A DNA stretch of 44,015 bases, taken from the sequence record PQ429080.1, one strand, 5' to 3'. Below, in pieces: positions 4,432-41,694 of this stretch. Every line of letters starts with the position of its first letter. Position 1 is the stretch's first letter. Under the pieces are notes generated by a model. The model made no database searches, was not told where the DNA came from, and was given only the letters and a program-made list of their open reading frames with translations. Origin of the DNA: Escherichia phage vB_VIPECOTPH05B. Made by a program: the position numbers and the translations under genes.

Positions 4432-7400
4432 TTAATCGTCTCCGAAGTTATTGATGATAGCTCGCGTAGGTGCGAATTCCTGTATTAGCGGCACCTGCTT
4501 AGTGAAGGTCTTTATATCCATATTACCGGTAGCCAGGTCCTGTACGGCCCCGAGCAACCCTGTGACGTAACCCATAGATGCCAACGAGTGACGAGGGGAA
4601 TCTCCCAGGAAGATATCCTGCAGTAAGGATACCCCGCCGATGGCACTCATACCCATTACGGACTCGCTGATGAGTTTCTGAGTGTCTACGTCCTTACCAT
4701 CCATGCCATGCTTAGCCATAGTAGCCAGCAGCATTAACGGGAACTGGTACGCCATAATATGGGCTACGCCAATCCACCCAGCGTCGTTCAGCTCTCTGCG
4801 CAGAATCTTGTTAGTGGCTGCCAGTGCGAAGCTCTGGTACCCTACAATGACTTTGCCGATAGGATTGAACTGTGCAAAGTGCGAGGTCTCTCCAGTACGA
4901 ATCTGCTGTACCAGGTAGTCCATCATACGCGTCCCCACAACCTCAACTTGCATCTGCAGGTCCGGCTGGAACATAGCGCCCGGGTTAGCCTTGTTGGCAG
5001 CGATAGCGCGGTCAGCAACATCGCGAGTAAGCCCGAAACGCTCCAGACGCTTAAACGCCTCAGCATCGCCCTTGAACATCTGAGTAAGCTCGTCCGCCAC
5101 AATACCGGAGTTCAGGTTCACCTGTAGCCGGTGCACCATGCTCATACCGTTGACGTGACGGGCAGCCTGCCCAACGTTCTGGGTGACGTTGAACCAGGAG
5201 GCCTGACGGGTCAGGTCCAGGTTATCGTCAGCGTACGTATTCAGCCAGCGGAAGCGCATCTCCTTCTGAATATTACCCCGCAGCACGGTATCTAGACGAG
5301 CAGCCATATCCGGGGTCTTGATAGCCACGGCACCTTCCTTGAACCAAGGCTGGTCACGCATACTGCGCAGCACTCTAGCCATACCGAACTCCTTCATAGC
5401 CAAAGCAGTATCGGTCAGCTGATACAGGCCGGAGTTCTTAAGCATAGTGGCGTTTGCCATATTCCCAGCTGCACGCAGCAAGTCCGGAAGCTGCCCAGCG
5501 TCAGCAGGTGCCCCACCCAGGATAAAGTCGATGGTGTCATTGACGGTCTTCTCCCACTTGGCGGAATCCGCTAGTACGTGCTTAGACTCATCAATCATCT
5601 TGGCGAGCTGTCCCAGGTCCTGTACGCCTGCATAGGCCATACCTACACGTCCAGACATACGGTTAGTGTACCCGTGCATAACCTTGGCTACGTCAGTATC
5701 CATCAGGTCCTGCATGCGCATGCTCTTACCGTTCACCAGATACTCTTTATCCATGTTGAACCGAGTACGCTGGCGCAAGTTCCGCGCAGGGGATGTGCTG
5801 CCGGATTCGCGTACGTTACCAGCCAGGAAGCTCTGGATTGCAGACTCTTCTACACCGGCGCTGCGCATAGCCATAACGACCTCGTCGTTACCCATGCCGT
5901 TAATCAGCTGCTTCCACATAGGGCCAGCCTGCCCAGCACGGCCATTGTAGATGCCGTCAACCATCTCCTTAGCAACACGCTGCACTACCTCTGACTCCAT
6001 GCTCGGGTACACATCCCGCAGGGCGGACCGGAACAGGGCGCGGTAGTCATCCAGGGTATTGCCTTGTGCGATACCTTGGCGCATCTTGTCGTAGCTGTAC
6101 TGGCGCGGGAAGTAGTAGTCGGATTTAACCAACGCACCATCATCCACTAAACCGGCATTGAGCATATGCTCGTGCCACTTGCTAGCCCAGCCAGAGCGGC
6201 GATAGGCGTCAACCAGTGGAGCAATCTCTGCGTCCGGCACCGGCACAGCGCGGCCGTTTACGTCAGCGCTGTAGGCAGCATCCAGGTACTTGCTCAGGCG
6301 GTCTTCCAGCGCAGCCCGCTCAGCGCGGAAATTACTACGATGGAAGAAGCGTGAGAGTACACCTACACCCTTATCCTTCAACGCGCCCAGGATAGCATCT
6401 TCCACTACGCTGGCGCGAGCATCCATCTCCAAAGTTAGGTTACGCTTGTAGTCTACCACTGACGGGCGACGGCCGCCTACTGCGGACGCATCCGACACTA
6501 GCAGTTTAGCCAAGTCTTCGTTGCCTTGGGCGATATTATCGTACAGGGCAAACATAGTGGAGAGCTTCTTCTTAGCGCCGTCCAGCATAGCTTGGGCGCG
6601 CTTAGCCTCATTGAGGGTGGTGCTGCCCGCCAGGTCCTGGAAGGCTTCGCTACGGAAGCTCTGGGCTTGGTCTGCATAATCCTTAGCTGTCCACTTAACT
6701 GCGTCCTCATACGCATCCAGGACATCTTCCAAGGCAGAGCCTTTTGCCTTGATGCCCAGAGCGTTCATGATGTACTCACCCAGTTGGCGGAGCATACTCT
6801 TACCGGTGGGAGACTGCGTACGTGCCAGGTGCTCAACCCACTCAGGGCTGTCGCCTAAGCCTGCCAGCATCTCATGCACATTACTTGCGTAATACCGCAT
6901 ACGCGGTGTCAGGGTGGAGTCAGCCGCAATAACAGCGCGCACTTCCTCCAGGCGTTTAGCAATCTCGGGATTACTGTCAATGGCGCGCGCAGTAGCAGCA
7001 TGAATCAGTTCGTGCACGGCCACCTTGCTTGTATCTGCATCCATAGCGCGCAGCGCATCGCCGACTGTAGTCCAGGTGCTGCCGTTAGCTTGCTTAGGCG
7101 CACGCAGGGATATCTCTCCCCGCTTAGCTAAATCTTGTTGTGCGTAAGTGTAGCGGCTACGGTTTGCGGAGCCTGCTACCAGTTTAAAATCAATGTCATT
7201 TACAGCATCGCCCAGCGTGTACAGAATAGCCTTCTGTCCTGCTGTCAAGTGCTCAGACTTCTTCAAGAACTGAACTACGTGCTGTGCTTTCATGTTCACG
7301 GAGGCGGTATTGTTTCTCGATACTTGGATGCTTTCATCCAGTGTCTTAGTGAGAATTTCCTCTCCCTCTCCTACTCCGGTAACATTAGCATCCCTCGCTG

Positions 7401-19366: not shown

Positions 19367-19388
19367 TCCTACTCCGGTAACTTCATTT
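19367..19388 (-). promoter_or_regulatory. Conserved element AAATGAAGTTACCGGAGTAGGA, copy 2 (candidate phage-RNAP promoter)
   Basis: Between the RNAP stop and the first late-side gene; 21 of 22 nt identical to the copy at 41059..41080. Confidence 0.35.
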
Positions 19389-26661: not shown

Positions 26662-27687
26662 TTATTTAGAACGACCAACCCAACGACCATCGTCGTCGAG
26701 CAGCATCGGAATTAACTGCGGGCAACCCTCAGTGATTACCATCACACCCAGGATTGGTTTCTTGCGGGTGAGCCTGCCATAAGCAAAGGCCATACTCTTG
26801 CGGTCAATTAGACACCCTGCGTACGCCCCGAAGTACAACGCCATGCTGCTAGCCGCATATTGGACCTCGAAGCGGCCATGCTCATGCCCCAACACCAGAG
26901 AGGTGCGCTCATGGGATGCATTGAGCATGAAATCACCGCTGACTTGATGCTGGAACCGTACAGGCCCCAGCGGTGTATTGAGCACCCAAGCATCGGCCCA
27001 CGACCACGCCGGAGCACCGTGCTCAGGGAATAGGATATCCCGGTACTTCTTGATAAATTGCACTGGCAAACCGTGAGCTTTAGCGCGGCGATATACGAGT
27101 GAACCATGATTGGAATCGCAAACCAGTAGGTTCGGGAATAGTTCATGCAGCTCCTCCAGTACGAGCTTGGCTTTCTCCAGCTCAACCCCGGCGCTGTCCA
27201 GGTTAGGGTCAGAGTCATGGAAGCTGATAGCGTGCCCGTCGGTTTCGTCACCAACCTGCACTACCATGTCCGGGCAGTACGCATCACGTACGCTCTCAAG
27301 GAATGGCATAGCGTCTACGTGGGTATACGGAGCGTGCAGGTCTCCTACCACCAGGATGCGGTGGCACATGTCCGGCACCTTTGTATTCCCGATATCGTCC
27401 GTTGGGCTTGGTTGGATTAGCTTACGCGCCGCCTGCAGCCCGCGGTTGGCACTGGCCTTGCTGCCCTTGTTATCCATGAATATGCTGCGCCAGTAGCGCA
27501 CAAGCTGGCGGGATACACTAATGTCCGTATCCACATCCCCACGGTTGTCCAGCTCCTGGTTGTAGTACTGCGCGGCCAGGGCGTTGTCAAGGTACTGACC
27601 TAGGATTGCCTGGTGCTGCTCTTTGGTGAATAGTTTTATTAGACTGACTCTAGCCAAGGTTGCCTCTCTTGTGTTGTTCCTACTCAT
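26662..27687 (-). CDS. Calcineurin-like metallophosphoesterase with an N-terminal extension of about 100 aa
   Basis: 341 aa; motifs VVGDLHAPY, GDETDGH, DSNHG, GHEHGRF match the metallophosphatase signature; no obvious SD before the ATG. Confidence 0.75.
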   Translation of the reverse strand: MSRNNTREATLARVSLIKLFTKEQHQAILGQYLDNALAAQYYNQELDNRGDVDTDISVSRQLVRYWRSIFMDNKGSKASANRGLQAARKLIQPSPTDDIGNTKVPDMCHRILVVGDLHAPYTHVDAMPFLESVRDAYCPDMVVQVGDETDGHAISFHDSDPNLDSAGVELEKAKLVLEELHELFPNLLVCDSNHGSLVYRRAKAHGLPVQFIKKYRDILFPEHGAPAWSWADAWVLNTPLGPVRFQHQVSGDFMLNASHERTSLVLGHEHGRFEVQYAASSMALYFGAYAGCLIDRKSMAFAYGRLTRKKPILGVMVITEGCPQLIPMLLDDDGRWVGRSK

Positions 27688-27818
27688 ATCACATTAATTT
27701 GCTGAGAATCACAGAATCAAGCCAGAGTCAACAAATAATTTTATTTAATTATTTAGTTGACCCTAGTGTATTTCCATGCTACCCTAACCCCCTACACCAC
27801 TCAAGGATCCACCTATCA
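27688..27818 (-). promoter_or_regulatory. AT-rich intergenic region with imperfect inverted repeat (GTCAACAAATAA ... TTATTTAGTTGAC)
   Basis: 131 bp with no ORF in a genome where most genes overlap; AT content well above the rest; repeat arms at about 27727..27738 and 27749..27761; TTGACT/TTGATT -35-like hexamers on the minus strand. Confidence 0.35.
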
Positions 27819-28037
27819 CTATTCCACGATAAGCTTGTACTCCCCGGCGAAGAAGGTAACACCATCCCCTGGTTCTTCTGAACCGCCTGGGTTAACAAGC
27901 TCCACCTCCCACGTGACGGGGTCGTACCCGATAACCCGATGCTGTGTGCCCGGGGCGTAATACAATGCCAGCTTAGGGTCGATTGGCTCTGGCCCAAGTT
28001 CCAACATCTCCACAATACTGCCAGGTTTGATAGTCAT
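27819..28037 (-). CDS. Hypothetical protein (72 aa)
   Basis: ATG overlaps the DNA polymerase stop (ATGA). Confidence 0.45.
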   Translation of the reverse strand: MTIKPGSIVEMLELGPEPIDPKLALYYAPGTQHRVIGYDPVTWEVELVNPGGSEEPGDGVTFFAGEYKLIVE

Positions 28038-31018: not shown

Positions 31019-31040
31019 AATCTCCTCCTGTGTACCTACA

Positions 31041-31063
31041 TAGCGCCCTCGTAGAAGGCGCTA
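31041..31063 (-). promoter_or_regulatory. Conserved intergenic hairpin, copy C
   Basis: Inverted repeat TAGCGCC / GGCGCTA around a loop containing GTAG; same architecture as copies at 38491 and 39519. Confidence 0.4.
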
Positions 31064-31069
31064 GGGAAG

Positions 31070-31396
31070 TCACTTGATTGGCGGAATATCAATAGCCTCT
31101 AGCAGCGGCTGCTGCAGCAGGTACGTGTTATATTCCTGTATCGCCTGCACCGCCAAGCCTCGCAGTCGCAATGCTTCGTTTACGTCCCAGCTAGTGCCTG
31201 GCGATTCCAGGACGAACGCTTCCTCATCAAAGTGGAATGTAGTCTCCTTAGATTCGGCCAGTCTTATGGAAGCGTCCCTGTCGCTTACGGCACACACAGT
31301 GTATACCGTACCCACCCGCACTCCAGTGCGGCGTTTTATTTCGGGGCTAACCTTGCCGGTCCGTACAACTTTATCACCAACTTTAAATTTAGACAT
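31070..31396 (-). CDS. Hypothetical protein, member 2 of the MSKFK-G-D-VV paralog family
   Basis: 108 aa from internal ATG (M47 of the track ORF); begins MSKFKVGDKVVRTG; ATG overlaps the last codons of the helicase (8-nt overlap). Confidence 0.5.
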   Translation of the reverse strand: MSKFKVGDKVVRTGKVSPEIKRRTGVRVGTVYTVCAVSDRDASIRLAESKETTFHFDEEAFVLESPGTSWDVNEALRLRGLAVQAIQEYNTYLLQQPLLEAIDIPPIK

Positions 31397-32669
31397 TAAC
31401 CTGACCCTCATCAAATCTACAACGTCCAGGCTCGAATCCCACCTCGAATTGCAGGAGCGACTCTTTACCAGATAGTGCCATCTTGTTCTTAGGAGTACTG
31501 ATACCGCGGACGTTTTGCATGTGCGGCTGCTCATTTCTGTCCAAGCACCCCATCATAATCGCCAAGTCCAAGGCACCCTGTACGCCAATCTTGCTCTGCT
31601 TCATAGCGGTGAGCGGAGGAAAGAGCATGTTGTAACCTTCGAGTGAAAGCTGCATAGTGCCTACTATAGCGCAGTCATTCTCGCACCCAAGTATGCGCAG
31701 CTCCTGCCATTTCGCTTCGAGGTTCTGGTGCTCGGTCTCCATAGTACCGCCACGGATGTTAGCCACCATGTCGATGATGATTACCGCGGGGCGCATCTCC
31801 TCCATGAGTGTGGATATCTGGGCCATCGTCAAGGAGTGCGCAGCCTTAACACGAATCCGGTCAGCCCTGCCTACTTTCTTGAGGTAGGCTGGCACGAACT
31901 CTTGCTTACTGTGCCGGTCCTTAATCTCAGCCAGAGTCCAGTGTAGCGCCGCTTGATATACCCTCGGCACTGTGCGCGTCGCCGGACCCTCGTTAACCAG
32001 CCAGAGGATAGGGCGGTCCCCGTACACTTCCGGCTGCTGCTGCATTTGCTCAGCAAAATCCACAGCAATAGCAGCAAGCAGACTAGTTTTACCAGAGTCC
32101 ACAGGAGCAGCCACTGCGATGCAGTCCCCGCCACGTAGACCTCGGATGTTGCTAGCGAGTTGCTCGAACACGCCCAGTTTAAGACCGCCGCTCTCATCAG
32201 TCGCGGCAAGTATCTCGTCAACACTACCGCTCTCCCATTCAAGCAGCGAATCATGCACCGCAGCGCCATCACCGTACTTGCGCTGCAGGTGCTTCATCTC
32301 CAGTAGGTAATCAATCTCCTCGCCGTCTTGGTAGCGTTGCGTAAGCGCCGCAACCTCCCCACTATAGGCCAGCTCGTTCAGGGTCTGGACAATCCCTACC
32401 ACAGAATCCTGCGGCACGGCTTGTACCCCCCGCATAAGCTCATCCATGATTACCCGCTCTTCCCGGGATAAGTGCCCGGCCCGGAGATTGAGCATGCTCT
32501 GCATCGCATCCCACTGCACCTCCTGGTGCTCCGGATACGTGTTCCAGTACAGCCCCACCCAGTCCAGAAGGTTCGAAGTATCCGGAGCAAGCATCGACTT
32601 AGGTATCTGCTCTCTCAGGCGGCTCCATACCTTCTGCGTGCACATTGCACGAACAACTATAAGGTCCAA
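31389..32669 (-). CDS. Replicative DNA helicase (DnaB-like / T7 gp4 helicase-domain-like)
   Basis: 426 aa; Walker A (VDSGKTSLL) and RecA-like core motifs; apparent TTG start with AAGGAGGT 6 nt upstream (first ATG would be 32645). Confidence 0.85.
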   Translation of the reverse strand: MDLIVVRAMCTQKVWSRLREQIPKSMLAPDTSNLLDWVGLYWNTYPEHQEVQWDAMQSMLNLRAGHLSREERVIMDELMRGVQAVPQDSVVGIVQTLNELAYSGEVAALTQRYQDGEEIDYLLEMKHLQRKYGDGAAVHDSLLEWESGSVDEILAATDESGGLKLGVFEQLASNIRGLRGGDCIAVAAPVDSGKTSLLAAIAVDFAEQMQQQPEVYGDRPILWLVNEGPATRTVPRVYQAALHWTLAEIKDRHSKQEFVPAYLKKVGRADRIRVKAAHSLTMAQISTLMEEMRPAVIIIDMVANIRGGTMETEHQNLEAKWQELRILGCENDCAIVGTMQLSLEGYNMLFPPLTAMKQSKIGVQGALDLAIMMGCLDRNEQPHMQNVRGISTPKNKMALSGKESLLQFEVGFEPGRCRFDEGQVNV

Positions 32670-32797
32670 TTCTTACCTCCTTCCAAAGCCTCTTGCACCA
32701 GTCTGGCTATTACTGCCCGAAGCTGCTGTGTCCCATGATAGAGAACAGCCGCGTCTCTTAGTTTGTTAACTAGCTCCCGCTGGATGTGTGGTTGCAT
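32657..32797 (-). CDS. Small hypothetical ORF (46 aa)
   Basis: Hand-translated: MQPHIQRELVNKLRDAAVLYHGTQQLRAVIARLVQEALEGGKNWTL; ATG overlaps upstream stop (TGATG); its 3' end contains the helicase SD. Could be untranslated leader. Confidence 0.25.
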   Translation of the reverse strand: MQPHIQRELVNKLRDAAVLYHGTQQLRAVIARLVQEALEGGKNWTL

Positions 32798-32991
32798 CAA
32801 ACCTCCTTCGGAATGCAGATTGCCTTAGCGGTATACACCCGGAATGTGTTGAACTTCTCTTCGAACGCCTTAGCTGCCTTGTTGCAGGCGGCCTCAGTTG
32901 TGAACTCTTGTGTAGTCAGGGCGGCGAAATCTGTATCGCTAACCGCGCTGCCATTAATCGCCATGATTAAAACCCAGATACCCGTAGTCAT
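32797..32991 (-). CDS. Hypothetical protein (64 aa), hydrophobic N-terminus
   Basis: ATG overlaps the primase stop (ATGA); MTTGIWVLIMAINGSAV may be a signal peptide or TM segment. Confidence 0.4.
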   Translation of the reverse strand: MTTGIWVLIMAINGSAVSDTDFAALTTQEFTTEAACNKAAKAFEEKFNTFRVYTAKAICIPKEV

Positions 32992-33773
32992 TGTAAAGCC
33001 TCCAGAATCTCTTTGATTGTTGCATCCTTAGGGTCCGCAGCGAAGTAATGCTCACGGCACTGCATGAACGGACGCAGTGCTCGACGTGCTGCTGCTACCC
33101 CAGCGTGCCCTGCCGGGTCATTGTCCAGCATCAGAATCACTTCCGGGCGATTCTGAATCAGCCAAGCCCTCAGCGGCGTGGGCAAGCGTGTACCCAGCAT
33201 AGCTATAGCCTGCACGTTCAACGCACTGTAGTTCGTAACTGCGTGCTGTATCTTCCGGGCTGAGAGTAAGTCCTCGGTAAGCACGACCTTTAGAGGCGCG
33301 GCCGCAGCTACAGCCGGTGCTACGGCAGGTGCCGCGACAGCGAAAGCTATTGGCTGGCCGTACATTACCCACTTCGGTTGCTGCCGAGCATGCACTGCAC
33401 GGCCCAGAGCAGCGCTTCCGACACGGAAGATTATCCGCTGTTTCTCTTTGCTCCATTCTGCATCCTCCACCATTTCAGGCATGATTCCCTTTGTGGTCAG
33501 GAATCCGTAAATAAAACTCTGCGTTTCCGCAGGCGCTTGGCTAATGCAAATTGCATCTGCAGGTGCAGAGGGCTGCACCCTCGGCTCTTCCTGTAACTGT
33601 ATGCGCTGGTACTGCTTGTGCTCCTTGCCCACCTGCTTGCAGCGGTGGCAATAATATTCCCAGGCATCCGGGTTATTGTAGAGCACCCCGGCTTCGTCCC
33701 TGCCGCAGCACCGAAAGCGCGCCCTCTGCCCCACGGCCAGGCGCTTGCACGCTCTAAGCCAGGGTTGGTCCAT
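32988..33773 (-). CDS. DNA primase (zinc-binding domain plus TOPRIM)
   Basis: 261 aa; Cys pairs in the N-terminus (CCGRDEAG ... CHRCK) and TOPRIM-like acidic motif (VILMLDNDPAG); encoded separately from the helicase. Confidence 0.8.
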   Translation of the reverse strand: MDQPWLRACKRLAVGQRARFRCCGRDEAGVLYNNPDAWEYYCHRCKQVGKEHKQYQRIQLQEEPRVQPSAPADAICISQAPAETQSFIYGFLTTKGIMPEMVEDAEWSKEKQRIIFRVGSAALGRAVHARQQPKWVMYGQPIAFAVAAPAVAPAVAAAAPLKVVLTEDLLSARKIQHAVTNYSALNVQAIAMLGTRLPTPLRAWLIQNRPEVILMLDNDPAGHAGVAAARRALRPFMQCREHYFAADPKDATIKEILEALQ

Positions 33774-33991
33774 TACGGCACCTCGTGCAGCACTATCCCT
33801 TGGTAGTTCTCGTAGATGCCGCAGCGGTCCCCCACGTCATCTACAAGCTCGTAGAATGTGAAGCAATTAACATACCCCATGGCGTATTCACCCACCTCGG
33901 AACGGGTAGCTGGGTAAATCTTGTTCAAGGTTAAGTCCGCTGCAGCAGGGTTGCGTCCCTTGTCAGTTACTACAATATTAACAGCCTTCAT
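33773..33991 (-). CDS. Hypothetical protein (72 aa)
   Basis: ATG overlaps upstream stop; its TAA overlaps the primase ATG (TAATG). Confidence 0.4.
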   Translation of the reverse strand: MKAVNIVVTDKGRNPAAADLTLNKIYPATRSEVGEYAMGYVNCFTFYELVDDVGDRCGIYENYQGIVLHEVP

Positions 33992-34470
33992 TGTGCTTTC
34001 TCCTTACGCTTGATTTCCATAGCCATGCGGCGCAGGTCGTGGGCCAACTGCAGTGCAGCGTCAGGTTCCAGGTTGATAGCCAGTATATTGCCGTAAGCTA
34101 GGGGATCAAACTTTTTACCGCTCTTCACTATGGCAATACTTAGGTGCCCCTCTAACTCCCAATGTGGCTGCACTAGCATGTGCTGGAAGTTGTCTTCACT
34201 GCTAGTGCTGTTATAGTACATAACGCTATCCGGAACCGGCGGCAGTTCGTCCTCTGGTTCTTGGTACAGCTCAAAGTTGCAGGCGGCCCAAGGATGTTCA
34301 TCATACACCTTAGACACACCATTTACCTGCAACCAGTAGCCCCCGGAAGGTACCGACGTAACTGTATAGTAGGCAGAGTCTCCGAGCATATGCAGAAAGT
34401 CTTCATCTTTACGGCCGCCTACTGTACGTACAACCTTATCACCAACTTTAAACTTAATAAACTTAGACAT
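33988..34470 (-). CDS. Hypothetical protein, member 1 of the MSKFK-G-D-VV paralog family
   Basis: 160 aa; begins MSKFIKFKVGDKVVRTVGG; ATG 2 nt after the stop of the peptidase-like gene. Confidence 0.5.
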   Translation of the reverse strand: MSKFIKFKVGDKVVRTVGGRKDEDFLHMLGDSAYYTVTSVPSGGYWLQVNGVSKVYDEHPWAACNFELYQEPEDELPPVPDSVMYYNSTSSEDNFQHMLVQPHWELEGHLSIAIVKSGKKFDPLAYGNILAINLEPDAALQLAHDLRRMAMEIKRKEKAQ

Positions 34471-34472
34471 AA

Positions 34473-35528
34473 TTAACCATCCACAATATTATCGTATCCG
34501 CCCCAGTCCTCTACGACTCTGGTGCCTAGTTCAATCAGTTCTTCTTTGAAGCCGTAATCGGAGAACACCATGATGTACTCCGCCGCCTTCGCTGGATTCT
34601 CCTGCACCCAGCTAACCAGCTGCTGTTTAGAAAGCTGTGACACTACACGGAACGCAGCCAGCAATTGCGGGTCCTCGTCCGGCGGCATATCCCACGGCTG
34701 CCGTAAACTGAGCGTCGAAGCAGAGAGCCACTGGTCTGGCTCCAGTACCTTCGGGTCCCGCTCAATCGGAAGGTGCGAGAACGTACCATCTTGCAGTACC
34801 CGCTCAAGCACTTGCCCCAGGATGTTCAGGTCCAGTACCTCATCCGGAGTGTGTTCGTGCATGTACCCTACGCCGACGTTGGTGCACTCAGGTATAATTC
34901 CAACGAACTCGGCTGAGTCAGTGTACACCCCCTTCTGTAAGTGCTGCTCCGTGCGTCCCAGGCGCTCTGCTAGGGTCTTTGCAAAGGTATCAGAGCAGCA
35001 GCGCATATACCTTTGATGCGTAATGATTCCGTCGCCGCGTCGGTCGAAGCTAATCATTGCCTTGACCCCAGTCCAAAATCCAGAGTCATCCTTGACCGAT
35101 GCAGCGCTACCCTCGCAGCCTACCTCTTCATCCACGAAGAAGCAGTAGCGTCCATGCACACCCCGTCGCAGCATCTCCAGCATCAGATAGATACCGGCAC
35201 CACAGTCAGCACCCAAGCAGTCAGCTTGTTGCGGATTCTTTACGAACAGTACACCCTTGTTAGTGCAGCCGACGTCCGGCGCAGCGCTGGTTGGCCTCGC
35301 CACTGTGTCGAGATGAGACGTAAACGCTACGTCACTTTGCTCTGAGTCCCCCACCAGCACGAAGTAGTTCCCGTGCTTGTCCTTTACGTAGTGCATACCA
35401 CTACCCAGCGCCTGTAAAGACTGCATAAGCAGCGGCTCAAACCACTTAGTGCTTGCCCAGCTAGGCCGGTGCGTTTGCAGTATCTGCAAGAGCAGCTGCA
35501 CATCAATCCCGTGCGGATTCAAGAACAT
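34473..35528 (-). CDS. Putative zinc metallopeptidase / deacylase (M20/M28/M42-like)
   Basis: 351 aa; candidate metal ligands in the expected order: FTSHLDTV, GADCGAG, DEEVGCEGS, YMHEHT. Family from motif pattern only. Confidence 0.5.
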   Translation of the reverse strand: MFLNPHGIDVQLLLQILQTHRPSWASTKWFEPLLMQSLQALGSGMHYVKDKHGNYFVLVGDSEQSDVAFTSHLDTVARPTSAAPDVGCTNKGVLFVKNPQQADCLGADCGAGIYLMLEMLRRGVHGRYCFFVDEEVGCEGSAASVKDDSGFWTGVKAMISFDRRGDGIITHQRYMRCCSDTFAKTLAERLGRTEQHLQKGVYTDSAEFVGIIPECTNVGVGYMHEHTPDEVLDLNILGQVLERVLQDGTFSHLPIERDPKVLEPDQWLSASTLSLRQPWDMPPDEDPQLLAAFRVVSQLSKQQLVSWVQENPAKAAEYIMVFSDYGFKEELIELGTRVVEDWGGYDNIVDG

Positions 35529-35869
35529 TAAGCTGCCTCCTCTACTTCTTCTTCATCATCGTTTCCAAGGTACTTCTCTCCCAAGCAATCGGCTGCATGC
35601 TCAGTTAGAATTAACCCGTGCACTGGATGTTCTTCTGCGTGCTCAATAAGCACCTGCCGGTCCTGTGCATACACCAGTTCTTCTTGGTCGTGCACTACCC
35701 CTTCTACCGAACAGTGCTCAATGTCCGCGTCATATACATAGGCGTCGTGGTAATCAGACCAGGTGCAGTTCCAGCGACTATGCAGCCCTTCTCGGCCAAC
35801 TACATATACAAAGTCCCCATCTTCGACACAGCCGTCGCAGACCATTTCACCGTCGGCGGTTTCGTGCAT
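35528..35869 (-). CDS. Highly acidic small protein (about 113 aa), possible DNA-mimic-type host-takeover protein
   Basis: By my count about 31 D/E against 4 K/R in 113 residues, C-terminus NDDEEEVEEAA, plus CDGC/HC Cys-His pairs; start uncertain (alternatives at 35941 and 35974 overlap the upstream gene). Confidence 0.45.
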   Translation of the reverse strand: MHETADGEMVCDGCVEDGDFVYVVGREGLHSRWNCTWSDYHDAYVYDADIEHCSVEGVVHDQEELVYAQDRQVLIEHAEEHPVHGLILTEHAADCLGEKYLGNDDEEEVEEAA

Positions 35870-35873
35870 ATCA

Positions 35874-37202
35874 TCAGTGGAGTAACGCCCCCCCGCAGCA
35901 GCAGCACCGAGCAGACTCTGTACCTGCGTAGATGTATCCATCGGCTTCTTGCGCCTCGTACTCGTAGTCATCACGGATTACAAAGGCGTCATCCTCATAC
36001 TCATCTACGCCGCGCTGGCTGCTATCTAGGTATGGCATCAGCACTGCGCCGTTGTATGTTGGGTGCGGTATCCGCGCCAGCATGACCCCTTCGAGACACT
36101 CAGTGTTTCTGGTGTACCCATGCCCCCGCAGGATTGCATCCGCAGCGTTGCCATAAGCACGGACGTACTCTTTGGTTTCAGGTTTTACGATTGCTCGTGC
36201 CTGCACTTCGAAGTCGTCCCCGAACAGCTCCCCGGTATACTGGATGAATAGGCGCAACCCGTTATCCGGCAACCCGTGGCTAGTAGTAGCGTACGTCCGC
36301 ACAGGGCTATACTCAAATGAGTACCCGCTCATGCAGCTACTTGGGCCGTTCTCGTAGGCGTCGTACCACTCCTGCTCGGTCTTGCACAGGTACACTGTAG
36401 GCTCTACGTTCATAGCCTTGAGGTCTTCGATAGCATCGCGGAAGTCCACCCCGTTGCCATAGTAGTTAGCGAGCCACTTACCTACGCGCATCTCCACGCA
36501 GCGGTACTCAGTAACTGCGGCGAAGTCCTTGTGCATCCGCGGCTGCCCCAGCATCACGATGGGCTCGCCGTTGCGGAAGCCAAAGCCCAAAGGCACGGCG
36601 AATCTAGACACTACGAAGCCGTGCAACTTCATGAGCAGGGCAGCAGTATAACCATCGCGGATGCATCTGCTGTAATCGTAGCCAGTGTATAGGCGGCGCT
36701 GATTATCTTCTGGTGCAAGCATAATGCGCTCGAATAATTGCACGGCCTGCTTGTGCACCTTGTAGCCGGTTAACTCTTCGACGCGAGCAACTACGCGCTC
36801 AACCACTACATCATCACCATCATAGAAGTCTCGGCGCTGTTCCCAGAACTTGCTATCAATGGTGCGCCGCGCCGGGGCAAAGAGTTCGTAGAAAGTTCCG
36901 CTGTTATACAGGTCCACCTTTTGCAACGGGCCGAGAGTCCTCATCAACCCGCGGTATTTTGGGTGCAGTGCCCCGCCTATAGTCACCTCTAAGCCGGGAG
37001 TGAGCATGCTCACAGTGCGGAGACCCGTAAGCGCCTGCAGTGGACCTTCGGTGTGGGGGTGGTCAGCGCCCTGCATTTGCAAGTCCTGGAACGGGGTCCA
37101 GTAATCACCGCTGGAATACATTGATTCTTTCATCGGCAGTGCGTTTGCACCTTCCGGTAACACTACTTTCCATTCGATAGGTGCTGTGTTAGTCTCTTGC
37201 AT
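35874..37202 (-). CDS. Large early protein of unknown function (about 442 aa), C-terminus ends in CCCC
   Basis: Track ORF reaches 37496 but overlaps the upstream gene; the ATG at 37202 has AGGAG 9 nt upstream (alternative ATG at 37259). No kinase, ligase or Walker motif recognised. Confidence 0.5.
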   Translation of the reverse strand: MQETNTAPIEWKVVLPEGANALPMKESMYSSGDYWTPFQDLQMQGADHPHTEGPLQALTGLRTVSMLTPGLEVTIGGALHPKYRGLMRTLGPLQKVDLYNSGTFYELFAPARRTIDSKFWEQRRDFYDGDDVVVERVVARVEELTGYKVHKQAVQLFERIMLAPEDNQRRLYTGYDYSRCIRDGYTAALLMKLHGFVVSRFAVPLGFGFRNGEPIVMLGQPRMHKDFAAVTEYRCVEMRVGKWLANYYGNGVDFRDAIEDLKAMNVEPTVYLCKTEQEWYDAYENGPSSCMSGYSFEYSPVRTYATTSHGLPDNGLRLFIQYTGELFGDDFEVQARAIVKPETKEYVRAYGNAADAILRGHGYTRNTECLEGVMLARIPHPTYNGAVLMPYLDSSQRGVDEYEDDAFVIRDDYEYEAQEADGYIYAGTESARCCCCGGALLH

Positions 37203-37248
37203 TTTAATTTGCTCCTGGGTTAGTTGTATTTCATCGTACGTTAAGAGT

Positions 37249-37593
37249 TCAGCGTGCATACCACGCAGCGAGCTGTCTTTGCTTATAATACGAGCGCACA
37301 GCCGCCTTAAATCTAGTATAGGCTCCACGATATCCGTACCGTAGTAGTGCTGCAACCACATCGAACTGAATGTGCTCTTGCAACTGCCGCGCGGCAGCTT
37401 CTGTATACTCGCGGTACGTGGTGAGCACCACCGTAGAGTCCTGCCTACGAACTCGGAGGAGTCTACGCTCGACCGGTATGATTTGCTTGAGTTCATTAGG
37501 AACCTCTTTGAATGTTTCCCAAGTGCAGCCGCACTTGCCCTGTGTTTCCAGCAGACGCCAGCACAGCAGCGCTGTTTCGTCTACTGTGAGCAT
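37249..37593 (-). CDS. Hypothetical protein (114 aa), basic
   Basis: ATG start; overlaps upstream gene by 13 nt. Confidence 0.4.
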   Translation of the reverse strand: MLTVDETALLCWRLLETQGKCGCTWETFKEVPNELKQIIPVERRLLRVRRQDSTVVLTTYREYTEAAARQLQEHIQFDVVAALLRYGYRGAYTRFKAAVRSYYKQRQLAAWYAR

Positions 37594-37799
37594 GAGCAGT
37601 CCCTGAATATTACGTTCCGGGCCACTAGGGTGCTGCGGTCACTAGATATTAACCCACCAACCTTGTGCCCGGATGGTATCCACCGCTGCAAACGCTCTGC
37701 ATAGAACTCCGCGCGCTTATGCAGTGGGCCATCAAGTACAACCCTGTATAGTAACCCATTCGGGCGCTTGTATACGTCATACAGGTTCTGTTTGCTCAT
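37581..37799 (-). CDS. Hypothetical protein (72 aa)
   Basis: ATG overlaps the stop of the upstream small ORF (ATGA). Confidence 0.45.
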   Translation of the reverse strand: MSKQNLYDVYKRPNGLLYRVVLDGPLHKRAEFYAERLQRWIPSGHKVGGLISSDRSTLVARNVIFRDCSCSQ

Positions 37800-37975
37800 A
37801 CAATACCCCTTACATTAAACCGTAAGCAGTAGCCGCGCAGGGTCATACCCAGGCGCTGCGCTTGCTTCTCATAGTGCTGGCGCAGCGCTGCCTTCGCGTT
37901 GTACTCGCGCGCCAGTCCGTCTATTGTTGGTTGCTGCTTATGCATCAGCAGCGTCTCAGGATTCTTTCCGTGCAT
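37796..37975 (-). CDS. Small hypothetical protein (59 aa), basic
   Basis: Hand-translated: MHGKNPETLLMHKQQPTIDGLAREYNAKAALRQHYEKQAQRLGMTLRGYCLRFNVRGIV; GAGGT 7 nt upstream of ATG. Confidence 0.3.
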   Translation of the reverse strand: MHGKNPETLLMHKQQPTIDGLAREYNAKAALRQHYEKQAQRLGMTLRGYCLRFNVRGIV

Positions 37976-37983
37976 ACCCTACC

Positions 37984-38247
37984 TCAAATATCGTTGTTGC
38001 TCTTACCGTCCACCGTGAGCGTTACAGCGGCGTCCGGGTACTGCTCTTGCACCGCCGCAAGGATACGTGCGCCCAGCTCTTTGCAACCACCGTCCGGGTT
38101 CTCAAAGAGGTCATAGTCAGGGCGTGACTGCGGCTCCTGCGCCGCCGGTTGCTGTAACTGCACTGTGCAATATGGCACCGGGTTGTTTACGTCGTTGCCC
38201 AGCACCAACATAGCGCTAGTCACAATAATGTTGAATACGTTAACCAT
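37984..38247 (-). CDS. Small protein with N-terminal hydrophobic segment (about 87 aa)
   Basis: Start at internal ATG (M11 of the track ORF) with GGAG 9 nt upstream; MVNVFNIIVTSAMLVLG resembles a signal peptide or TM anchor. Confidence 0.4.
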   Translation of the reverse strand: MVNVFNIIVTSAMLVLGNDVNNPVPYCTVQLQQPAAQEPQSRPDYDLFENPDGGCKELGARILAAVQEQYPDAAVTLTVDGKSNNDI

Positions 38248-38461
38248 AGAGTTGTCTCCAGTCGTTGATAATACCAAGATTCACGGCGTCCAGCACAGTG
38301 CGGGCAGCCATTTCGGTGTAGGTATCCACAAATTCTAAAGGGGATTCCTGATTAGTGTCTTTGTCAGAGAATATAACCACAGTGTAGTTGTATTCCTCGT
38401 ATACCCGATTGCACCACACAGGCCAGAGTTCATGGCCCGGATAGACCAGTATTGCTTTCAT
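38240..38461 (-). CDS. Hypothetical protein (about 73 aa)
   Basis: Start at second ATG (M5) with GAGG 6 nt upstream; immediately downstream of hairpin copy A. Confidence 0.45.
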   Translation of the reverse strand: MKAILVYPGHELWPVWCNRVYEEYNYTVVIFSDKDTNQESPLEFVDTYTEMAARTVLDAVNLGIINDWRQLYG

Positions 38462-38490
38462 ATGAAACCTCATACTCCAGTTGCATTCAC

Positions 38491-38512
38491 ATAGCGCCCC
38501 GTAGGACGCTAT
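38491..38512 (-). promoter_or_regulatory. Conserved intergenic hairpin, copy A
   Basis: Minus-strand RNA AUAGCGUCC-UACG-GGGGCGCUAU: 9-10 bp stem with a UACG tetraloop; about 27 of 30 nt identical to copy B. Confidence 0.45.
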
Positions 38513-38522
38513 AGGCTTGCTA

Positions 38523-38696
38523 CTAAAGCACGCTTATACCGATACGTGAATAGAAGTCGCTGAGCTTAATCAAGCCCGCCGTGATGGTGTTCTGGAGGCT
38601 AGGCCGCGCCAGCGACTTCTGTGCAGCACTGGGTTTACGCTTGCTACGCATTTCAGCAGCATCAGCACGACGTTGGGCACGGTTACGGTATGGCAT
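38523..38696 (-). CDS. Small basic protein (57 aa)
   Basis: Hand-translated: MPYRNRAQRRADAAEMRSKRKPSAAQKSLARPSLQNTITAGLIKLSDFYSRIGISVL; AAGGAGAG 7 nt upstream of ATG; Arg/Lys-rich. Confidence 0.35.
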   Translation of the reverse strand: MPYRNRAQRRADAAEMRSKRKPSAAQKSLARPSLQNTITAGLIKLSDFYSRIGISVL

Positions 38697-38895
38697 AGTT
38701 TACTCTCCTTTGTTGTGGCATGATTGCCCTCTAGGGTACTCGTTAGAATACCCTATGAGAAATCACGCTAGAGATACTCACCCAATCCCTCGTACACCCA
38801 TTTTTGAGCGATTGCCCGCATAGGGATATCGAAGGCGTCCGCATCGTTCGCTGCGGGGCACAGGGCCCACCACTTGATAACCGGGACTTTATAAA

Positions 38896-39471
38896 TCATG
38901 CTGCCACCTTCAAAGTTGCGTCCAGTACAGCGCGTACATCCACGCCCTGATTGATAAGCATGCTCACCAAATCAGAGTCGCTTACGCCAGTCTCTTTAGC
39001 CTTCTTGATAGCGTTTTTAACGCGCCCCAGCGCCTGCAGGCGCACTGCATCGGCATCCAGTGCGTCATTCTTCACCTGCTCCGCTTCGGCGGCGTACAGG
39101 GCCATACAGGAGCTATAGAAGCTGGCTACAATCACTTCGCGGCCCTGCTTGTCAGCTTGTTTATAGTCCAGACGCATAGTGTCCAGTTCAATGCCCAGCT
39201 TCTCTGCCGAGGCGTAGCACTTCTTCGCGTTGAATTCGTACTTACCGGACTCTTTATTGAACTTGATAGGCAGCAGAGTACGCAGCACCATATCGAAGTC
39301 AGCAGCATCACTGCGCTGCATATCCGTAGCCCATGAGATGTTGCTGCTAATCAGGCCGTGAAAGAGCGCGCTGATAGTGATGTTACGTTTTGCTTCCACT
39401 ACGTCACCCAGCGCTTTGCGAATGCTGCCCGCAGCAGTGAGCTTGAATACTTTACCAGTTGAATGAGTCAT
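38896..39471 (-). CDS. Hypothetical early protein (191 aa)
   Basis: ATG with GAGGTG upstream; downstream of hairpin copy B; no recognisable motif. Confidence 0.5.
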   Translation of the reverse strand: MTHSTGKVFKLTAAGSIRKALGDVVEAKRNITISALFHGLISSNISWATDMQRSDAADFDMVLRTLLPIKFNKESGKYEFNAKKCYASAEKLGIELDTMRLDYKQADKQGREVIVASFYSSCMALYAAEAEQVKNDALDADAVRLQALGRVKNAIKKAKETGVSDSDLVSMLINQGVDVRAVLDATLKVAA

Positions 39472-39518
39472 AATGCACCTCGTTGATTGTTGGTTGTTTA
39501 CTTATCGAATTACTTCAC

Positions 39519-39540
39519 ATAGCACCCCATAGGATGCTAT
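39519..39540 (-). promoter_or_regulatory. Conserved intergenic hairpin, copy B
   Basis: Same stem-loop as copy A; one stem base pair is G:C in A and A:T in B (both partners changed), so pairing is preserved. Confidence 0.45.
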
Positions 39541-39549
39541 AGGCTGTAA

Positions 39550-39765
39550 TTAACGTCCGAACTGTCCGGCAGTGTACCAACCTTGCGGAGCCTTGCTGCT
39601 GCCCTTTGTTTTGGTCTTACCACGCACATTCGTGCTGAACGTGGCGGATTGCTTAGTCCGCATATACCCTGCGCGGTTCAGTGCATCCCGGCGCTTTCTC
39701 AATTCCGAACCGGATAACTTCTCCAGCCCAGCGAATTGCTGCGCTAACTTCTCACGATATTTCAT
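39550..39765 (-). CDS. Hypothetical small basic protein (about 71 aa), first gene after the ORF-free leader
   Basis: Start at first ATG (M6 of the track ORF) with AAGGAG 6 nt upstream; K/R-rich. Confidence 0.45.
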   Translation of the reverse strand: MKYREKLAQQFAGLEKLSGSELRKRRDALNRAGYMRTKQSATFSTNVRGKTKTKGSSKAPQGWYTAGQFGR

Positions 39766-40263: not shown

Positions 40264-40292
40264 AATCTAGCTTATGTTCTTCGCGGTGTCAA
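40264..40292 (-). promoter_or_regulatory. Candidate sigma70-type early promoter (TTGACA - 17 nt - TAGATT) with A-rich upstream tract
   Basis: Minus strand reads GATAAAAAGAG-TTGACA-CCGCGAAGAACATAAGC-TAGATT; perfect -35, 17-nt spacer, 4 of 6 at -10. Confidence 0.4.
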
Positions 40293-40879: not shown

Positions 40880-41694
40880 CCTTACATAGTGATGAGTAGC
40901 GTAACCATAGCGACGATATCCCGGAGGGATAGGAGCGGAGGTTACAAGATTCTAGGGATAGCAGCCTACTGCGTAGGCACAGGGCTATCCTAGTGAATAC
41001 CTAGTAGGGACTAGTAAGGACTAGTATTAAGTAGTGTGTATATAGTGCCCTAAAACCCTCCTACTCCGGTTACTTCATTTCATAATAGCTTTCGAATGAA
41101 AGTAAGAGCAAAGGGATAGCATTGGGATAGCGCTGGGATAGCGGCAGAGTGTGGATGTGCGCCCTAGTGGGGAGCGCGCAGCGTAGCATATAATTAGCAC
41201 AATGTAAAGCCCCAAGGATAGCCAGTGGATAGCCTAGTGCATACTAGGGATAGCACTAGGGATAGCACCACAGCGCACTAGCTGGCCCACTAGGCAGGCA
41301 CAAAATAAGCAAGGCAGAGCGCACCCCTATGGCCCACAGGGAGCGCACAGGGAGCGCCTAGTGAACGCACAGGGATAGCACCAGTGCCCCATAGAGCGCA
41401 CAGGAAGCCCTACAAGGCACGCACAGGCAAAGCCATAGGGTAGCACTAGCAATAGCCCTAGCGCAGCGCAGAGAGCCACTGAGGCCCACTGGTGCGCCCT
41501 AGCAGGCCCACCCAGTGCCCCCCCCCTAAATTGGCGCTAGGCACCCCCTATGGGGGCAATTGGGCGCGCTGAGGGTGAGGGACCCTGCCGCGTGAGTATA
41601 ATAAATTTCGGGTTCAGGTATAGACGTGCACCCGGATAGCCCCAGATAGCCCCACATAGACGCCCAGTGCTTACTCTAGTACTTACCCTAGCAC
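40880..41694. repeat. ORF-free repeat-rich region: at least 10 copies of GGATAGC plus CACAGGG/CACTAGG motifs, a C9 homopolymer and short tandem repeats; probable genome-terminus region
   Basis: No ORF of 60 aa or more on either strand across about 800 bp; GGATAGC at about 40956, 41114, 41125, 41136, 41216, 41227, 41248, 41259, 41373, 41634 (first three tandem copies spaced 11 bp); C-run at 41518..41526. Confidence 0.6.
41059..41080 (-). promoter_or_regulatory. Conserved element AAATGAAGTAACCGGAGTAGGA, copy 1 (candidate phage-RNAP promoter)
   Basis: 21 of 22 nt identical to the copy after the RNAP gene; lies in the repeat region upstream of the HNH gene. Confidence 0.35.

Follow-up and report, generated by a model that had tools for sequence, protein, structure and literature searches.

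The closest described systems are the RNase III sites of phage T7, which punctuate its early mRNAs. Escherichia coli RNase III needs at least 11 bp between the loop and the cut, its distal box is U:A followed by U.G, with the U.G at position 2 being stringent, G:C or C:G at positions 2 and 4 of the proximal box act as antideterminants, and the sequence of the loop is irrelevant to the enzyme (PMC1540722). Our literature search found no RNA-end or cleavage data for any KP34-like phage.

A repeated motif in the early region of Kp34likevirus, AGCCTATAGCGTCCTACGGGGCGCTATGTGAA, was described as a 'putative phage promoter' with two copies per genome, and nick sites were offered as an alternative to the promoter (Eriksson 2015, PMC4411677). 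KP34 RNA polymerase made no RNA in vitro from a template that carried the motif, in a test that used linear PCR DNA only (Lu 2019, PMC6834552). The motif is the same sequence as the element described here. It was read there as DNA, whereas here it proves to be an RNA hairpin that forms on one strand, covaries and has a lower stem, and it occurs well beyond Drulisvirus.

Results

Genome setting of the hairpins

The window, which means the whole stretch of 44,015 nt analysed here, is a complete Drulisvirus (KP34-like) genome in reverse-complemented orientation, and its minus strand carries all genes. The repeated hairpin in it is a conserved RNA structure separating early genes of a KP34-like Klebsiella phage. 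The following features were identified:

40264..40292, minus strand: host sigma-70-type early promoter, TTGACA-17-TAGATT (promoter scan, 10/12 matches)
39508..39551, minus strand: element B, 68.5 bits on covariance model R1 (E=3.5e-17), fold -17.1 kcal/mol, z=-3.6
38718..38768, minus strand: element D, a third hairpin class, absent from the sequence-only reading and found by folding the intergenic gaps
38471..38532, minus strand: element A (core matched by the model 38480-38523), 69.1 bits on R1 (E=2.3e-17)
31030..31075, minus strand: element C, a related second hairpin class, fold -21.2 kcal/mol, z=-4.4

Each of the four hairpins separates two minus-strand cistrons, and the intergenic position had been noticed before for the sites of A, B and C. 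All are downstream of the early promoter. The promoter has the same sequence as the Kp34likevirus host promoter in Table 3 of PMC4411677; it would give a polycistronic early transcript carrying B, D and A, and element B starts about 720 nt downstream of it. An intrinsic terminator was rejected at A, B and C: the sequences after the stems (GUGAAUGC, GUGAAGUA and GUAGGUAC) have no U-tract, in agreement with the earlier observation, and a terminator scan reported none of these sites. Homologues of the KP34 polymerase promoter T(A/G)ATGTTACAGGAGTA were found at 7372-7387, 19370-19385 and 41062-41077. A phage RNA polymerase promoter was rejected because these homologues are absent at the hairpins and no transcript was obtained in vitro (PMC6834552).

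Structure of the elements

Elements A and B are two members of one element. Element B has the lower stem AAUUAC/GUAAUU, the internal loop AGCC/UGAA, an upper stem of 10 bp (UAUAGCAUCC/GGGUGCUAUG) and the loop UAUG, and the UAA stop of the 76-aa gene upstream (39552-39550) extends into its lower stem. The core of element A is GUAGCA-AGCC-UAUAGCGUCC-UACG-GGGCGCUAUG-UGAA-UGCAAC, and the element is identical to the consensus of Eriksson 2015. In this phage A has 11 extra lower-stem pairs, about 25 pairs in total, and in the RNA fold this extended stem sequesters GGAG and the first AUG (38473-38471), while the UAG stop of the gene upstream is at 38525-38523. The two copies show three differences, namely one loop base and both partners of one stem pair. 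This compensatory change, G:C in A and A:T in B at the same stem pair, had been claimed by the sequence-only reading for copies at 38491..38512 and 39519..39540. The change is correct and the copies are real, with a repeat that spans 32 nt and is identical at 29/32 positions (91%). The 22-nt hairpin that was taken there as the functional unit was too short; the unit is really about 44-62 nt, including the lower stem and the internal loop. Pattern CACATAGCRCCCCRTAGGAYGCTATAGGC matched only 38488-38516 and 39516-39544 in the window, with 0 matches in 100 shuffles.

Element C is a related hairpin class, distinct from A/B. It reads GUGACUU-CCC-UAGCGCCUUC-UAC-GAGGGCGCUA-UGU-AGGUACAC, and a UGA stop (31072-31070) lies inside its lower stem. 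On the minus-strand RNA its stem has 10 pairs counting G.U, closed by a 3-nt loop; counted from the loop the pairs begin with C:G, U:A and U.G, pairs 8-10 are G:C, A:U and U:A, and C.U stands at pair 11. The site 31041-31063 had been proposed as a third, diverged copy of the repeat. Its 7-bp Watson-Crick stem is confirmed, but its status as an A/B-type member was rejected because it reached only 8.8 bits (E=5) on model R1, compared with 69 bits for A and B. The 11-mer GGGCGCTATGT is common to C and A, and the sequence shared between C and A/B is limited to CCUAGCG and GGGCGCUAUGU. Of the 15 distinct Drulisvirus sequence contexts that were recovered, 13 kept element C, with variation confined to the loop, and the region of C is conserved in 245 phage records, where homology begins about 10 nt ahead of the hairpin. 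The cores of A, B and C start 7-10 nt past the upstream stop, which overlaps the lower stem or sits inside it.

Element D reads GCGUGAUUUCUC-A-UAGGGUAUUC-UAAC-GAGUACCCUA-GAGG-GC-AAUCAUGC, with about 22 pairs, and its first base is the G of a UAG stop (38770-38768). The lower stem is retained in its homologues from KP34, Lidtsur, Peggy and Gaspode, whose upper stems are unrelated and still paired. RNAalifold predicted 18 pairs from six D sequences, 7 of them with double changes. In Peggy, a D-type lower stem is joined to a C-type upper stem.

Strand specificity and folding

Plain hairpins of at least 9 pairs are not rare, with 89 in the window compared with about 49 in shuffles, and the significance rests on repetition, conservation and covariation. 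The sense strands of A, B and C folded with -20.9, -17.1 and -21.2 kcal/mol (z=-4.4, -3.6 and -4.4), and 0 of 200 shuffles were as good; the antisense strands gave -14.4, -12.8 and -15.8 kcal/mol (z=-1.8, -3.1 and -2.0). The covariance model scored 69 bits on the sense strand versus 12.5 on the antisense strand. This preference for one strand arises because the G.U pairs of the fold turn into C.A mismatches on the opposite strand.

Conservation and covariation

The A/B family comprised 45 distinct sequences, drawn from Enterobacterales phages of four or more subfamilies or genera, and in this family only the sense strand folds. In the common fold, the lower stem takes in the upstream stop codon, and its sequence varies with strong covariation. 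It is followed by a 4x4 internal loop and a 10-bp upper stem in which two G.U pairs are conserved, and the helix is capped by a tetraloop, UNCG in most cases, which is the most variable part. Among the 45 sequences 95.5% of cells were paired and 10 of the 17 pairs showed double changes, which 0 of 500 shuffles reached. The 32 distinct IMG/VR instances, aligned without gaps, gave 94.7% paired cells versus 28-49% with the partners slid, and double changes in all 6 lower-stem pairs and 3 upper-stem pairs (matched by 0 of 500 shuffles). RNAalifold independently predicted the same structure, and no family in Rfam matched the element. With a strand-specific fold and clear covariation in 45 distinct homologues, the RNA-structure reading is strongly supported.

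In the upper stem, pairs 1 and 4 vary, flanking the equivalent of the distal box, and pairs 5-10 stay nearly constant even in a search that does not constrain them. Phages of Slopekvirinae, Bonnellvirus and Melnykvirinae share one and the same version of a near-invariant core of 25-31 nt, and Corkvirinae phages have nearly the same one. The 25-nt upper hairpin does not differ even between subfamilies in which the neighbouring proteins are only about 50% identical. This conservation is tighter than the known need of RNase III, and it could reflect a sequence-specific reader or recent horizontal spread. The internal loop differs between genera (AGCC/UGAA, CACC/UGAG and CUGC/UCGG). Because its sequence changes while the C.U mismatch and the helix are kept, recognition of shape is favoured over a protein that reads the loop. 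The genes flanking the element also vary among phages, including SAMase, primase and various small ORFs, so a general intergenic processing signal fits better than an operator of one gene.

Signs of recombination were found as well. In the hybrid contigs L023, L036 and L047, the flank upstream of B is combined with the flank downstream of A, the contigs L032, L035 and L040 carry three copies, and the B-to-A spacing varies from 647 to 1182 nt.

Match with RNase III determinants

The helices span about two turns, with about 25 pair positions in A, 20 in B, 20 in C and 22 in D. In A, B and C the spacing of at least 11 bp between loop and predicted cut is provided by the 10-bp upper stem and then C.U, one Watson-Crick pair and one mismatch, the same series as in T7 R1.1. 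The register of the boxes on the elements was set by analogy with T7. In this register U.G stands at pair 3 in all four elements and in 42 of the 45 distinct family members. Position 1 of the distal box (pair 2), placed by analogy with R1.1, is U:A in C and D and C:G in A and B. Proximal-box position 2 (pair 9) is A:U in all four, which is no G/C antideterminant. At pair 11, A, B and C have the C.U that R1.1 also has, and in D a bulged A makes this position ambiguous. Position 1 of the proximal box is the canonical G:C in C and D, but A and B are off the optimum, with U:A instead of G:C at this position and U.G at position 3.

Discussion

Proposed function

The earlier reading had suggested a processing or protein-binding site and not a terminator. 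The part on terminators stands, and for RNase III it is the anatomy that speaks. On balance we lean to the view that the elements would be T7-like processing and stabilising signals of early mRNAs, used by host RNase III. They would act in cis in the sense (minus-strand) early and middle polycistronic transcripts, which in this phage group come mainly from host RNA polymerase. Each element is a quasi-continuous, roughly two-turn helix that sits precisely where two genes meet; the upstream stop overlaps the lower stem or falls within it, and the next gene's ribosome-binding site comes after the 3' arm. Host RNase III would bind this helix, and the internal loop (C.U at pair 11, Watson-Crick at pair 12, mismatch at pair 13) would limit cutting to the 3' strand.

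The T7 cleavage coordinates used here reportedly go back to Dunn and Studier in 1983, and in three sites of locus L058 they all fall on UAU|GA. Counted from the T7 sites, the cut is predicted about 13 nt past the loop, each to within about 2 nt: between 38487 and 38486 in A, between 39515 and 39514 in B (UGA|A), and between 31038 and 31037 in C (UGU|A). The upstream mRNA would be left with a very stable, mostly UNCG-capped 3' hairpin of 10 bp, which may block 3'-to-5' exonucleases, and cutting would fix the 5' end of the downstream cistron. For A, cleavage would also free the sequestered Shine-Dalgarno sequence and AUG. The enzyme, the position of the cut and the consequences for stability and translation are what we infer from the match with the T7 sites and the published determinants.

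Alternative explanations

A GC-rich top of the stem, loops that are mostly UNCG, a stop codon in the lower stem and a Shine-Dalgarno sequence close behind would also suit an exonuclease barrier or a translational spacer working without RNase III. As a barrier, the stable UNCG-capped hairpin would halt 3'-to-5' exonucleases that follow an RNase E cut or readthrough decay, like REP-type stabilisers. As a spacer, the element would use its lower stem to link termination in the upstream cistron with exposure of the next ribosome-binding site; the extended stem of A does pair GGAG and AUG, and cleavage of the elements by RNase III is itself a prediction. But both versions leave unexplained the conserved geometry of the internal loop and the two-turn length, as well as the conserved U.G at pair 3 and the A/U-rich pairs 7-10, which match RNase III boxes and T7 sites, and the invariant sequence at pairs 5-10 is needless for a simple barrier. 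We regard this explanation as unlikely. There is also only a small chance, in our view, that the elements are sequence-specific sites of a dedicated phage or host protein, either nut- or put-like antitermination elements or translational operators. The extreme conservation of the upper-stem sequence across subfamilies would be expected for such a site, the elements lie in early RNA transcribed by host polymerase downstream of the early promoter, and an element precedes the same conserved 190-aa gene in Drulisvirus and Phimunavirus (50% identity). However, the loop varies freely, the internal-loop sequence changes between genera, the flanks have no boxA-like conserved sequence, the neighbouring genes differ in Bonnellvirus, Wanjuvirus and Peggy, a search of the flanking proteins found no RNA-binding domain, and the elements are positioned anywhere from 0.5 to 5.8 kb into the genome.

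Very unlikely, in our estimate, is a function at the DNA level. The sequence could then be a phage promoter (perhaps active only when extruded as a hairpin) or a site-specific nick site, serve in priming or as an origin, or be a hotspot of recombination. The GenBank records of SU503 and SU552A annotate the motif as 'promoter', the promoter test in vitro was limited to linear PCR DNA, nick sites had been proposed in Eriksson 2015 (PMC4411677), and the copies do recombine. Yet KP34 RNA polymerase made no transcript from the motif region and its real promoters are elsewhere, and recombination between repeats is a consequence of repeats and not necessarily a function. The consensus of the site-specific nicks of phiKMV-type phages is CGACNNNNNCCTACTCCGG; it had no match at the hairpins with up to 3 mismatches allowed. 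A duplex site or a cruciform is disfavoured by the covariation in the lower stem, by the mismatches of the 4x4 loop and by the conserved G.U, which is C.A on the opposite strand. These features point to one single strand, the mRNA-sense strand, whereas a hairpin promoter of the N4 type would be on the template strand. What is the only long repeated motif of KP34-like phages moves here from a GenBank 'promoter' to a testable RNA function.

Comparison with known systems

PeSL (promoter-early stem-loop) cassettes of T4-type phages were reportedly described by Arbiol et al. in 2010. Like them, the elements here are repeated intergenic stem-loops bounding variable early genes, and recombination between copies deletes or inserts small ORFs. 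They differ from PeSL in that no sigma-70 promoter is associated with the element and the conserved part is the hairpin itself. It may be that a dedicated sequence-specific factor reads the core as a portable module, and that the core doubles as a recombination joint for early-gene cassettes between subfamilies, though we find this rather doubtful; if true, the core would be a PeSL-like mobile regulatory cassette of phiKMV-type Enterobacterales phages. The hairpin of Peggy, which mixes halves of two classes, fits this idea. The elements are also defined, portable RNA parts with predicted cut sites, which could help in engineering expression in such phages and in interpreting their transcriptomes.

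The lambda nut site (boxA and boxB), HK022 put and the elements here are all hairpins in early transcripts below early promoters of the host polymerase. Unlike nut and put, the elements have no boxA-like flank and no conserved loop, and they form a single long helix with an internal loop at variable distance from the promoter.

The resemblance to T7 bears on RNase III processing, the reading we prefer. The T7 intergenic regions R0.3, R0.5 and R1.1, when folded here, have the same layout as elements A, B and C. Their lower stem is variable (5-7 bp), and that of R0.5 holds a UGA stop, as the lower stems here take in the upstream stops. Their internal loop, ACUC/UAUGA, is conserved and has C.U at pair 11, as here, and both have a conserved upper stem (9-10 bp in T7) with G.U pairs and a short variable terminal loop. 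Both T7 and this phage belong to Autographiviridae, carry several sequence classes per genome, and place helices of about two turns between the genes of polycistronic early mRNA. The elements have no sequence similarity to these T7 signals or to R1 and R1.3, the internal loop is 4x4 here and 4x5 in T7, and the A/B class deviates from the boxes at distal position 1 and proximal positions 1 and 3. The number of sites per genome is only 2-4 here, confined to the early/middle region, compared with about ten in T7, where they are distributed over the genome. These likenesses suggest that the phiKMV-type branch of Autographiviridae, which includes many Klebsiella therapy phages, also has its early mRNAs punctuated by RNase III in the manner of T7.

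Genome and placement of the hairpins

A 3-kb query around the hairpins showed 100% identity to Klebsiella phage vB_VIPKPNMC07C (PQ505478.1, 44,014 bp; Autographiviridae, Slopekvirinae, Drulisvirus), and KP34 and its relatives showed 87-91% identity to the same query. The window is a whole genome, reverse-complemented and rotated, so all genes read on the minus strand. The hairpins are the following:

38480-38523 (extended, 38471-38532), minus strand: copy A
39508-39551, minus strand: copy B, same family as A
31030-31075, minus strand: copy C, a related second class
38718-38768, minus strand: hairpin D, a third class

Copies A and B are in the early region. Copy C is in the DNA-metabolism region, at the border of a variable gene slot 3' of the helicase gene. 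Directly upstream of C lies an accessory gene (31070-31396, minus strand; longer ORF to 31534) which is present in only some Drulisvirus genomes, and its product has a sub-threshold Pfam match to a phage ProQ C-terminal-like domain (18.9 bits, cut-off 27). ProQ proteins are binders of RNA hairpins. Apart from this match, comparison of the flanking proteins with Pfam and PHROGs gave unknown function only. Directly after B, 38896-39471 (minus strand) encodes a 191-aa protein of unknown function, with 50% identity to the product of 2071-2640 in Pectobacterium phage Gaspode (L054, Corkvirinae). Because the Gaspode homologue also directly follows the element, the hairpin and the 191-aa gene are a module common to subfamilies.

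Hairpin structure and covariation

Hairpins of comparable size numbered 89 in the window and about 49 in shuffled sequences; they are common by chance, and therefore a hairpin alone proves nothing. Copies A and B were the sole matches to their joint pattern in the window, and none was found in 100 shuffles. They form a 32-nt repeat with 29 of 32 positions identical; of the three differences, one is in the loop and two are the partners of a single stem pair (G:C in A, A:U in B), bearing out the compensatory change described in the sequence-only reading. That reading also counted C as a third copy. Its 7-bp Watson-Crick stem is present, with 10 pairs including G.U on the sense RNA; A and B stand as one family, while C scored just 8.8 bits against the A/B covariance model and cannot be kept as a third copy. 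When the window was searched with this model and filters off, only A and B rose above noise. The intergenic position and the absence of a U-tract hold for A, B and C, and a scan for sigma-70 promoters and terminators gave no match at the hairpins, in agreement with the claim that they are not terminators.

In an ungapped alignment of 32 distinct IMG/VR sequences, 94.7% of cells were paired, compared with 28-49% when the partners were slid. Each of the six pairs of the lower stem had double changes, as did three pairs of the upper stem, a level reached in 0 of 500 shuffles. With other genera added (45 distinct sequences), the paired structure was kept in 95.5% of cells and 10 of 17 pairs had double changes, including U:A to C:G in the outer upper stem. 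RNAalifold independently predicted the same fold. The sense strand folded 5-6.5 kcal/mol better than the antisense, the A/B model scored 69 bits on the sense and 12.5 on the antisense, and on the plus strand the conserved G.U pairs become C.A mismatches. The lower stem is variable yet always paired, and there are wobble pairs and UNCG loops; these point to an element that acts as RNA and not as a duplex DNA site.

Earlier reading of the motif as a promoter

Copy A on the minus strand reads AGCCTATAGCGTCCTACGGGGCGCTATGTGAA, letter for letter the sequence that Eriksson et al. 2015 gave as the "phage promoter consensus". They found two copies of the motif per genome in five KP34-like phages, and nick sites were the alternative that they named (PMC4411677). 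Lu et al. 2019 obtained no RNA by KP34 RNA polymerase from a PCR fragment of the motif region, and defined the promoters of this polymerase as T(A/G)ATGTTACAGGAGTA (PMC6834552). These two papers were the only literature found that carries the motif sequence, and the label "promoter" persists in some GenBank records. A KP34 RNA polymerase promoter at the hairpins was rejected, as the homologues of the defined promoter lie elsewhere in the window:

7372-7387, minus strand: TAATGTTACCGGAGTA, structural region
19370-19385, minus strand: TGAAGTTACCGGAGTA, directly after the RNA polymerase gene
41062-41077, minus strand: TGAAGTAACCGGAGTA, near the left genome end

The antisense of these homologues is TCCTACTCCGG, which we take to be the conserved half of the phiKMV nick-site consensus (Kulakov 2009). 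A phiKMV nick site at the hairpins was rejected, since this consensus has no match there with up to 3 mismatches.

Anatomy and spread of the A/B-type element

The A/B-type unit is about 44 nt or longer and has four parts, with pairs numbered outward from the terminal loop (upper stem, pairs 1-10; internal loop from pair 11).

Table. Parts of the A/B-type element
Lower stem: 4-7 bp (14 paired positions in copy A of the window); sequence different in each genomic context
Internal loop: 5'-AGCC, 3'-side UGAA; central C:G
Upper stem: 10 bp, UAUAGCGUCC/GGGCGCUAUG; two conserved U.G pairs
Tetraloop: mostly UACG, UGCG, UUCG, CACG or UAUG

Lower stems are, for example, AAUUAC/GUAAUU, GGUUAAU/AUUAACC, UGAU/AUCA and AAUGGUA/UACCGUU, and the upstream gene's stop codon is inside or abuts them. 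The internal-loop letters change with genus (AGCC/UGAA, CACC/UGAG, CUGC/UCGG), with the C.U mismatch and the helix kept. Even with pairs 5-10 left free in the search, they are TATAGC/GCTATG in 73 of the 78 genuine instances. A hairpin ribozyme or K-turn was rejected for the AGCC/UGAA loop, as a second domain is missing and the sequence of the loop differs between genera.

A scan of IMG/VR gave 51 loci with 83 instances, and 299 records of a phage database contained the element, with Klebsiella, Pectobacterium, Escherichia, Shigella, Dickeya, Cronobacter, Enterobacter and Pantoea as hosts. Among whole and partial genomes it occurred in Slopekvirinae (Drulisvirus), Corkvirinae (Phimunavirus, Kotilavirus), Bonnellvirus, Melnykvirinae (Wanjuvirus) and an unclassified Cronobacter phage. 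Rfam gave no match, either for the whole window at the gathering threshold or for 38400-39650 at E<=10. A scan of one genome each from 100,044 bacterial and archaeal species found no host counterpart; host mimicry was rejected, as its six matches were all chance, in unrelated taxa and without a hairpin.

The 3' end of the core reads as a start codon followed by a stop, AUG-UGA in A (38490-38485) and B (39518-39513) and AUG-UAG in C (31041-31036), all on the minus strand. As the AUG is base-paired, this reading is probably a coincidence.

Further hairpin classes

Within Drulisvirus, copy C was conserved apart from its loop (UAC, UAU, CUA), and no C-type copy was found in other genera. A UGA stop is inside its lower stem. 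Hairpin D, long with about 22 pairs, came to light when the remaining gaps between genes were folded. Drulisvirus, Bonnellvirus, Peggy and Phimunavirus share a conserved lower stem, GCGUGAUUUCU/GGGCAAUCAUGC; each has a wholly different upper stem that is still paired, with double changes at 7 of 18 pairs among six sequences. Peggy carries a C-type upper stem on a D-type lower stem, so halves have been exchanged between classes.

Recombination and other features of the genome

In three hybrid contigs (L023 9963-10006, L036 9135-9178, L047 210-253) the upstream flank of B is joined directly to the downstream flank of A and the genes between are deleted. Three others (L032, L035, L040) have an extra copy 88 nt after B, with a 7-codon mini-ORF (MVGYGEG) between, and the B-to-A distance across related contigs ranges from 647 to 1182 nt. 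From these arrangements we conclude that recombination between copies does occur, and the elements thus bound a recombining, variable gene slot. Such recombination can be a by-product of having repeats.

Other features were observed in the window:

27724-27763, minus strand: AT-rich near-perfect palindrome GGGTCAACTAAATAATTAAATAAAATTATTTGTTGACTC, in a 160-nt gap (27657-27819), the widest between genes in the DNA-metabolism region; a possible origin, operator or terminator
27681-27696: weak phage-promoter match TAATGTGATATGAGTA (3 mismatches), after the palindrome
41250-41410: cluster of short direct repeats, e.g. AGGGATAGCACC... and CCACAGGGAGCGCAC..., close to where the genome end and the terminal-repeat region are presumed to lie

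Possible function

The sequence-only reading proposed processing sites of RNase III type or protein-binding sites. The anatomy agrees with the former. The analysis shows the structure, its strand, its conservation and the anatomical likeness; the enzyme, the cut positions and their consequences we infer. Host RNase III would recognise the two-turn helix and cut the 3' strand in the internal loop, with cuts predicted (to within about 2 nt) after 38487, 39515 and 31038. This would leave the upstream mRNA with a stable hairpin at its 3' end as a shield against exonucleases, a known consequence of single-strand cleavage (PMC1540722), and would give the downstream cistron a defined 5' end. Cutting of copy A would also release a paired GGAG and AUG. 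We favour this mechanism at somewhat better than even chances. Literature searches gave no transcriptomic or RNase III findings for KP34-like phages, and no paper that connects phages of KP34 or phiKMV type with RNase III.

A pure exonuclease barrier or a translational spacer is unlikely, as it leaves the box-like conservation unexplained. A dedicated RNA-binding or antitermination factor would explain the striking 25-nt hairpin identity across subfamilies, where the neighbouring protein is only 50% identical; however, the terminal loop varies freely, the internal loop is not constant, the flanks have no boxA-like sequence, neighbouring genes differ and no RNA-binding domain was found beside the element, and we give such a factor the same low chance as the barrier or spacer. 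An operator for one downstream gene was rejected, because the neighbouring genes differ between genera. Roles at the DNA level (promoter, nick or origin) are the least probable: they conflict with the in-vitro result (PMC6834552), the strand asymmetry and the mismatch loop, and a nick also with the absence of its consensus.

The motif itself is already known. What appears to be new is the reading of it as a covarying RNA of the sense strand, the full length of the element, its occurrence in several subfamilies, the RNase III anatomy of T7 type and the two further hairpin classes.

Comparison with RNase III sites of phage T7

We folded the T7 intergenic regions with early RNase III sites (locus L058). 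R0.3, R0.5 and R1.1 have the same plan as the window hairpins: a variable lower stem of 5-7 bp (in R0.5 the UGA stop of gene 0.4 lies within it), an internal loop (ACUC/UAUGA) and an upper stem of 9-10 bp with G.U pairs, both conserved, and a short terminal loop. We take the cleavage coordinates to be 890, 1468 and 5887, respectively (Dunn and Studier 1983). Thus placed, each of the three cuts falls on the 3' strand, 12-13 nt beyond the loop, at one and the same U of UAU|GA.

Table. Pairs counted from the terminal loop
T7 R1.1: C:G, U:A, U.G, A:U, C:G, U.G, G:C, G:C, A:U, A:U, C.U, U:A, C.U
Copy C: C:G, U:A, U.G, C:G, C:G, G:C, C:G, G:C, A:U, U:A, C.U, C:G, C.U
Copies A/B: C:G, C:G, U.G, G:C (A:U in B), C:G, G:C, A:U, U:A, A:U, U.G, C.U, C:G, G.A, A.A

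Escherichia coli RNase III requires at least 11 bp between loop and cut, and the tetraloop sequence is irrelevant to it (Pertzev and Nicholson 2006, PMC1540722). Its distal box is U:A then U.G, of which U.G is stringent; its proximal box is G:C, A:U or U:A, A:U, and A:U or U:A, with U.C at position 4 in R1.1, and G:C or C:G at positions 2 and 4 is an antideterminant (PMC1540722). In the A/B family the varying upper-stem pairs, 1 and 4, flank the equivalent of the distal box. Under this register, U.G at pair 3 and A:U at pair 9 are present in all four window hairpins, C.U at pair 11 in A, B and C, and U:A at pair 2 with G:C at pair 8 in C and D.
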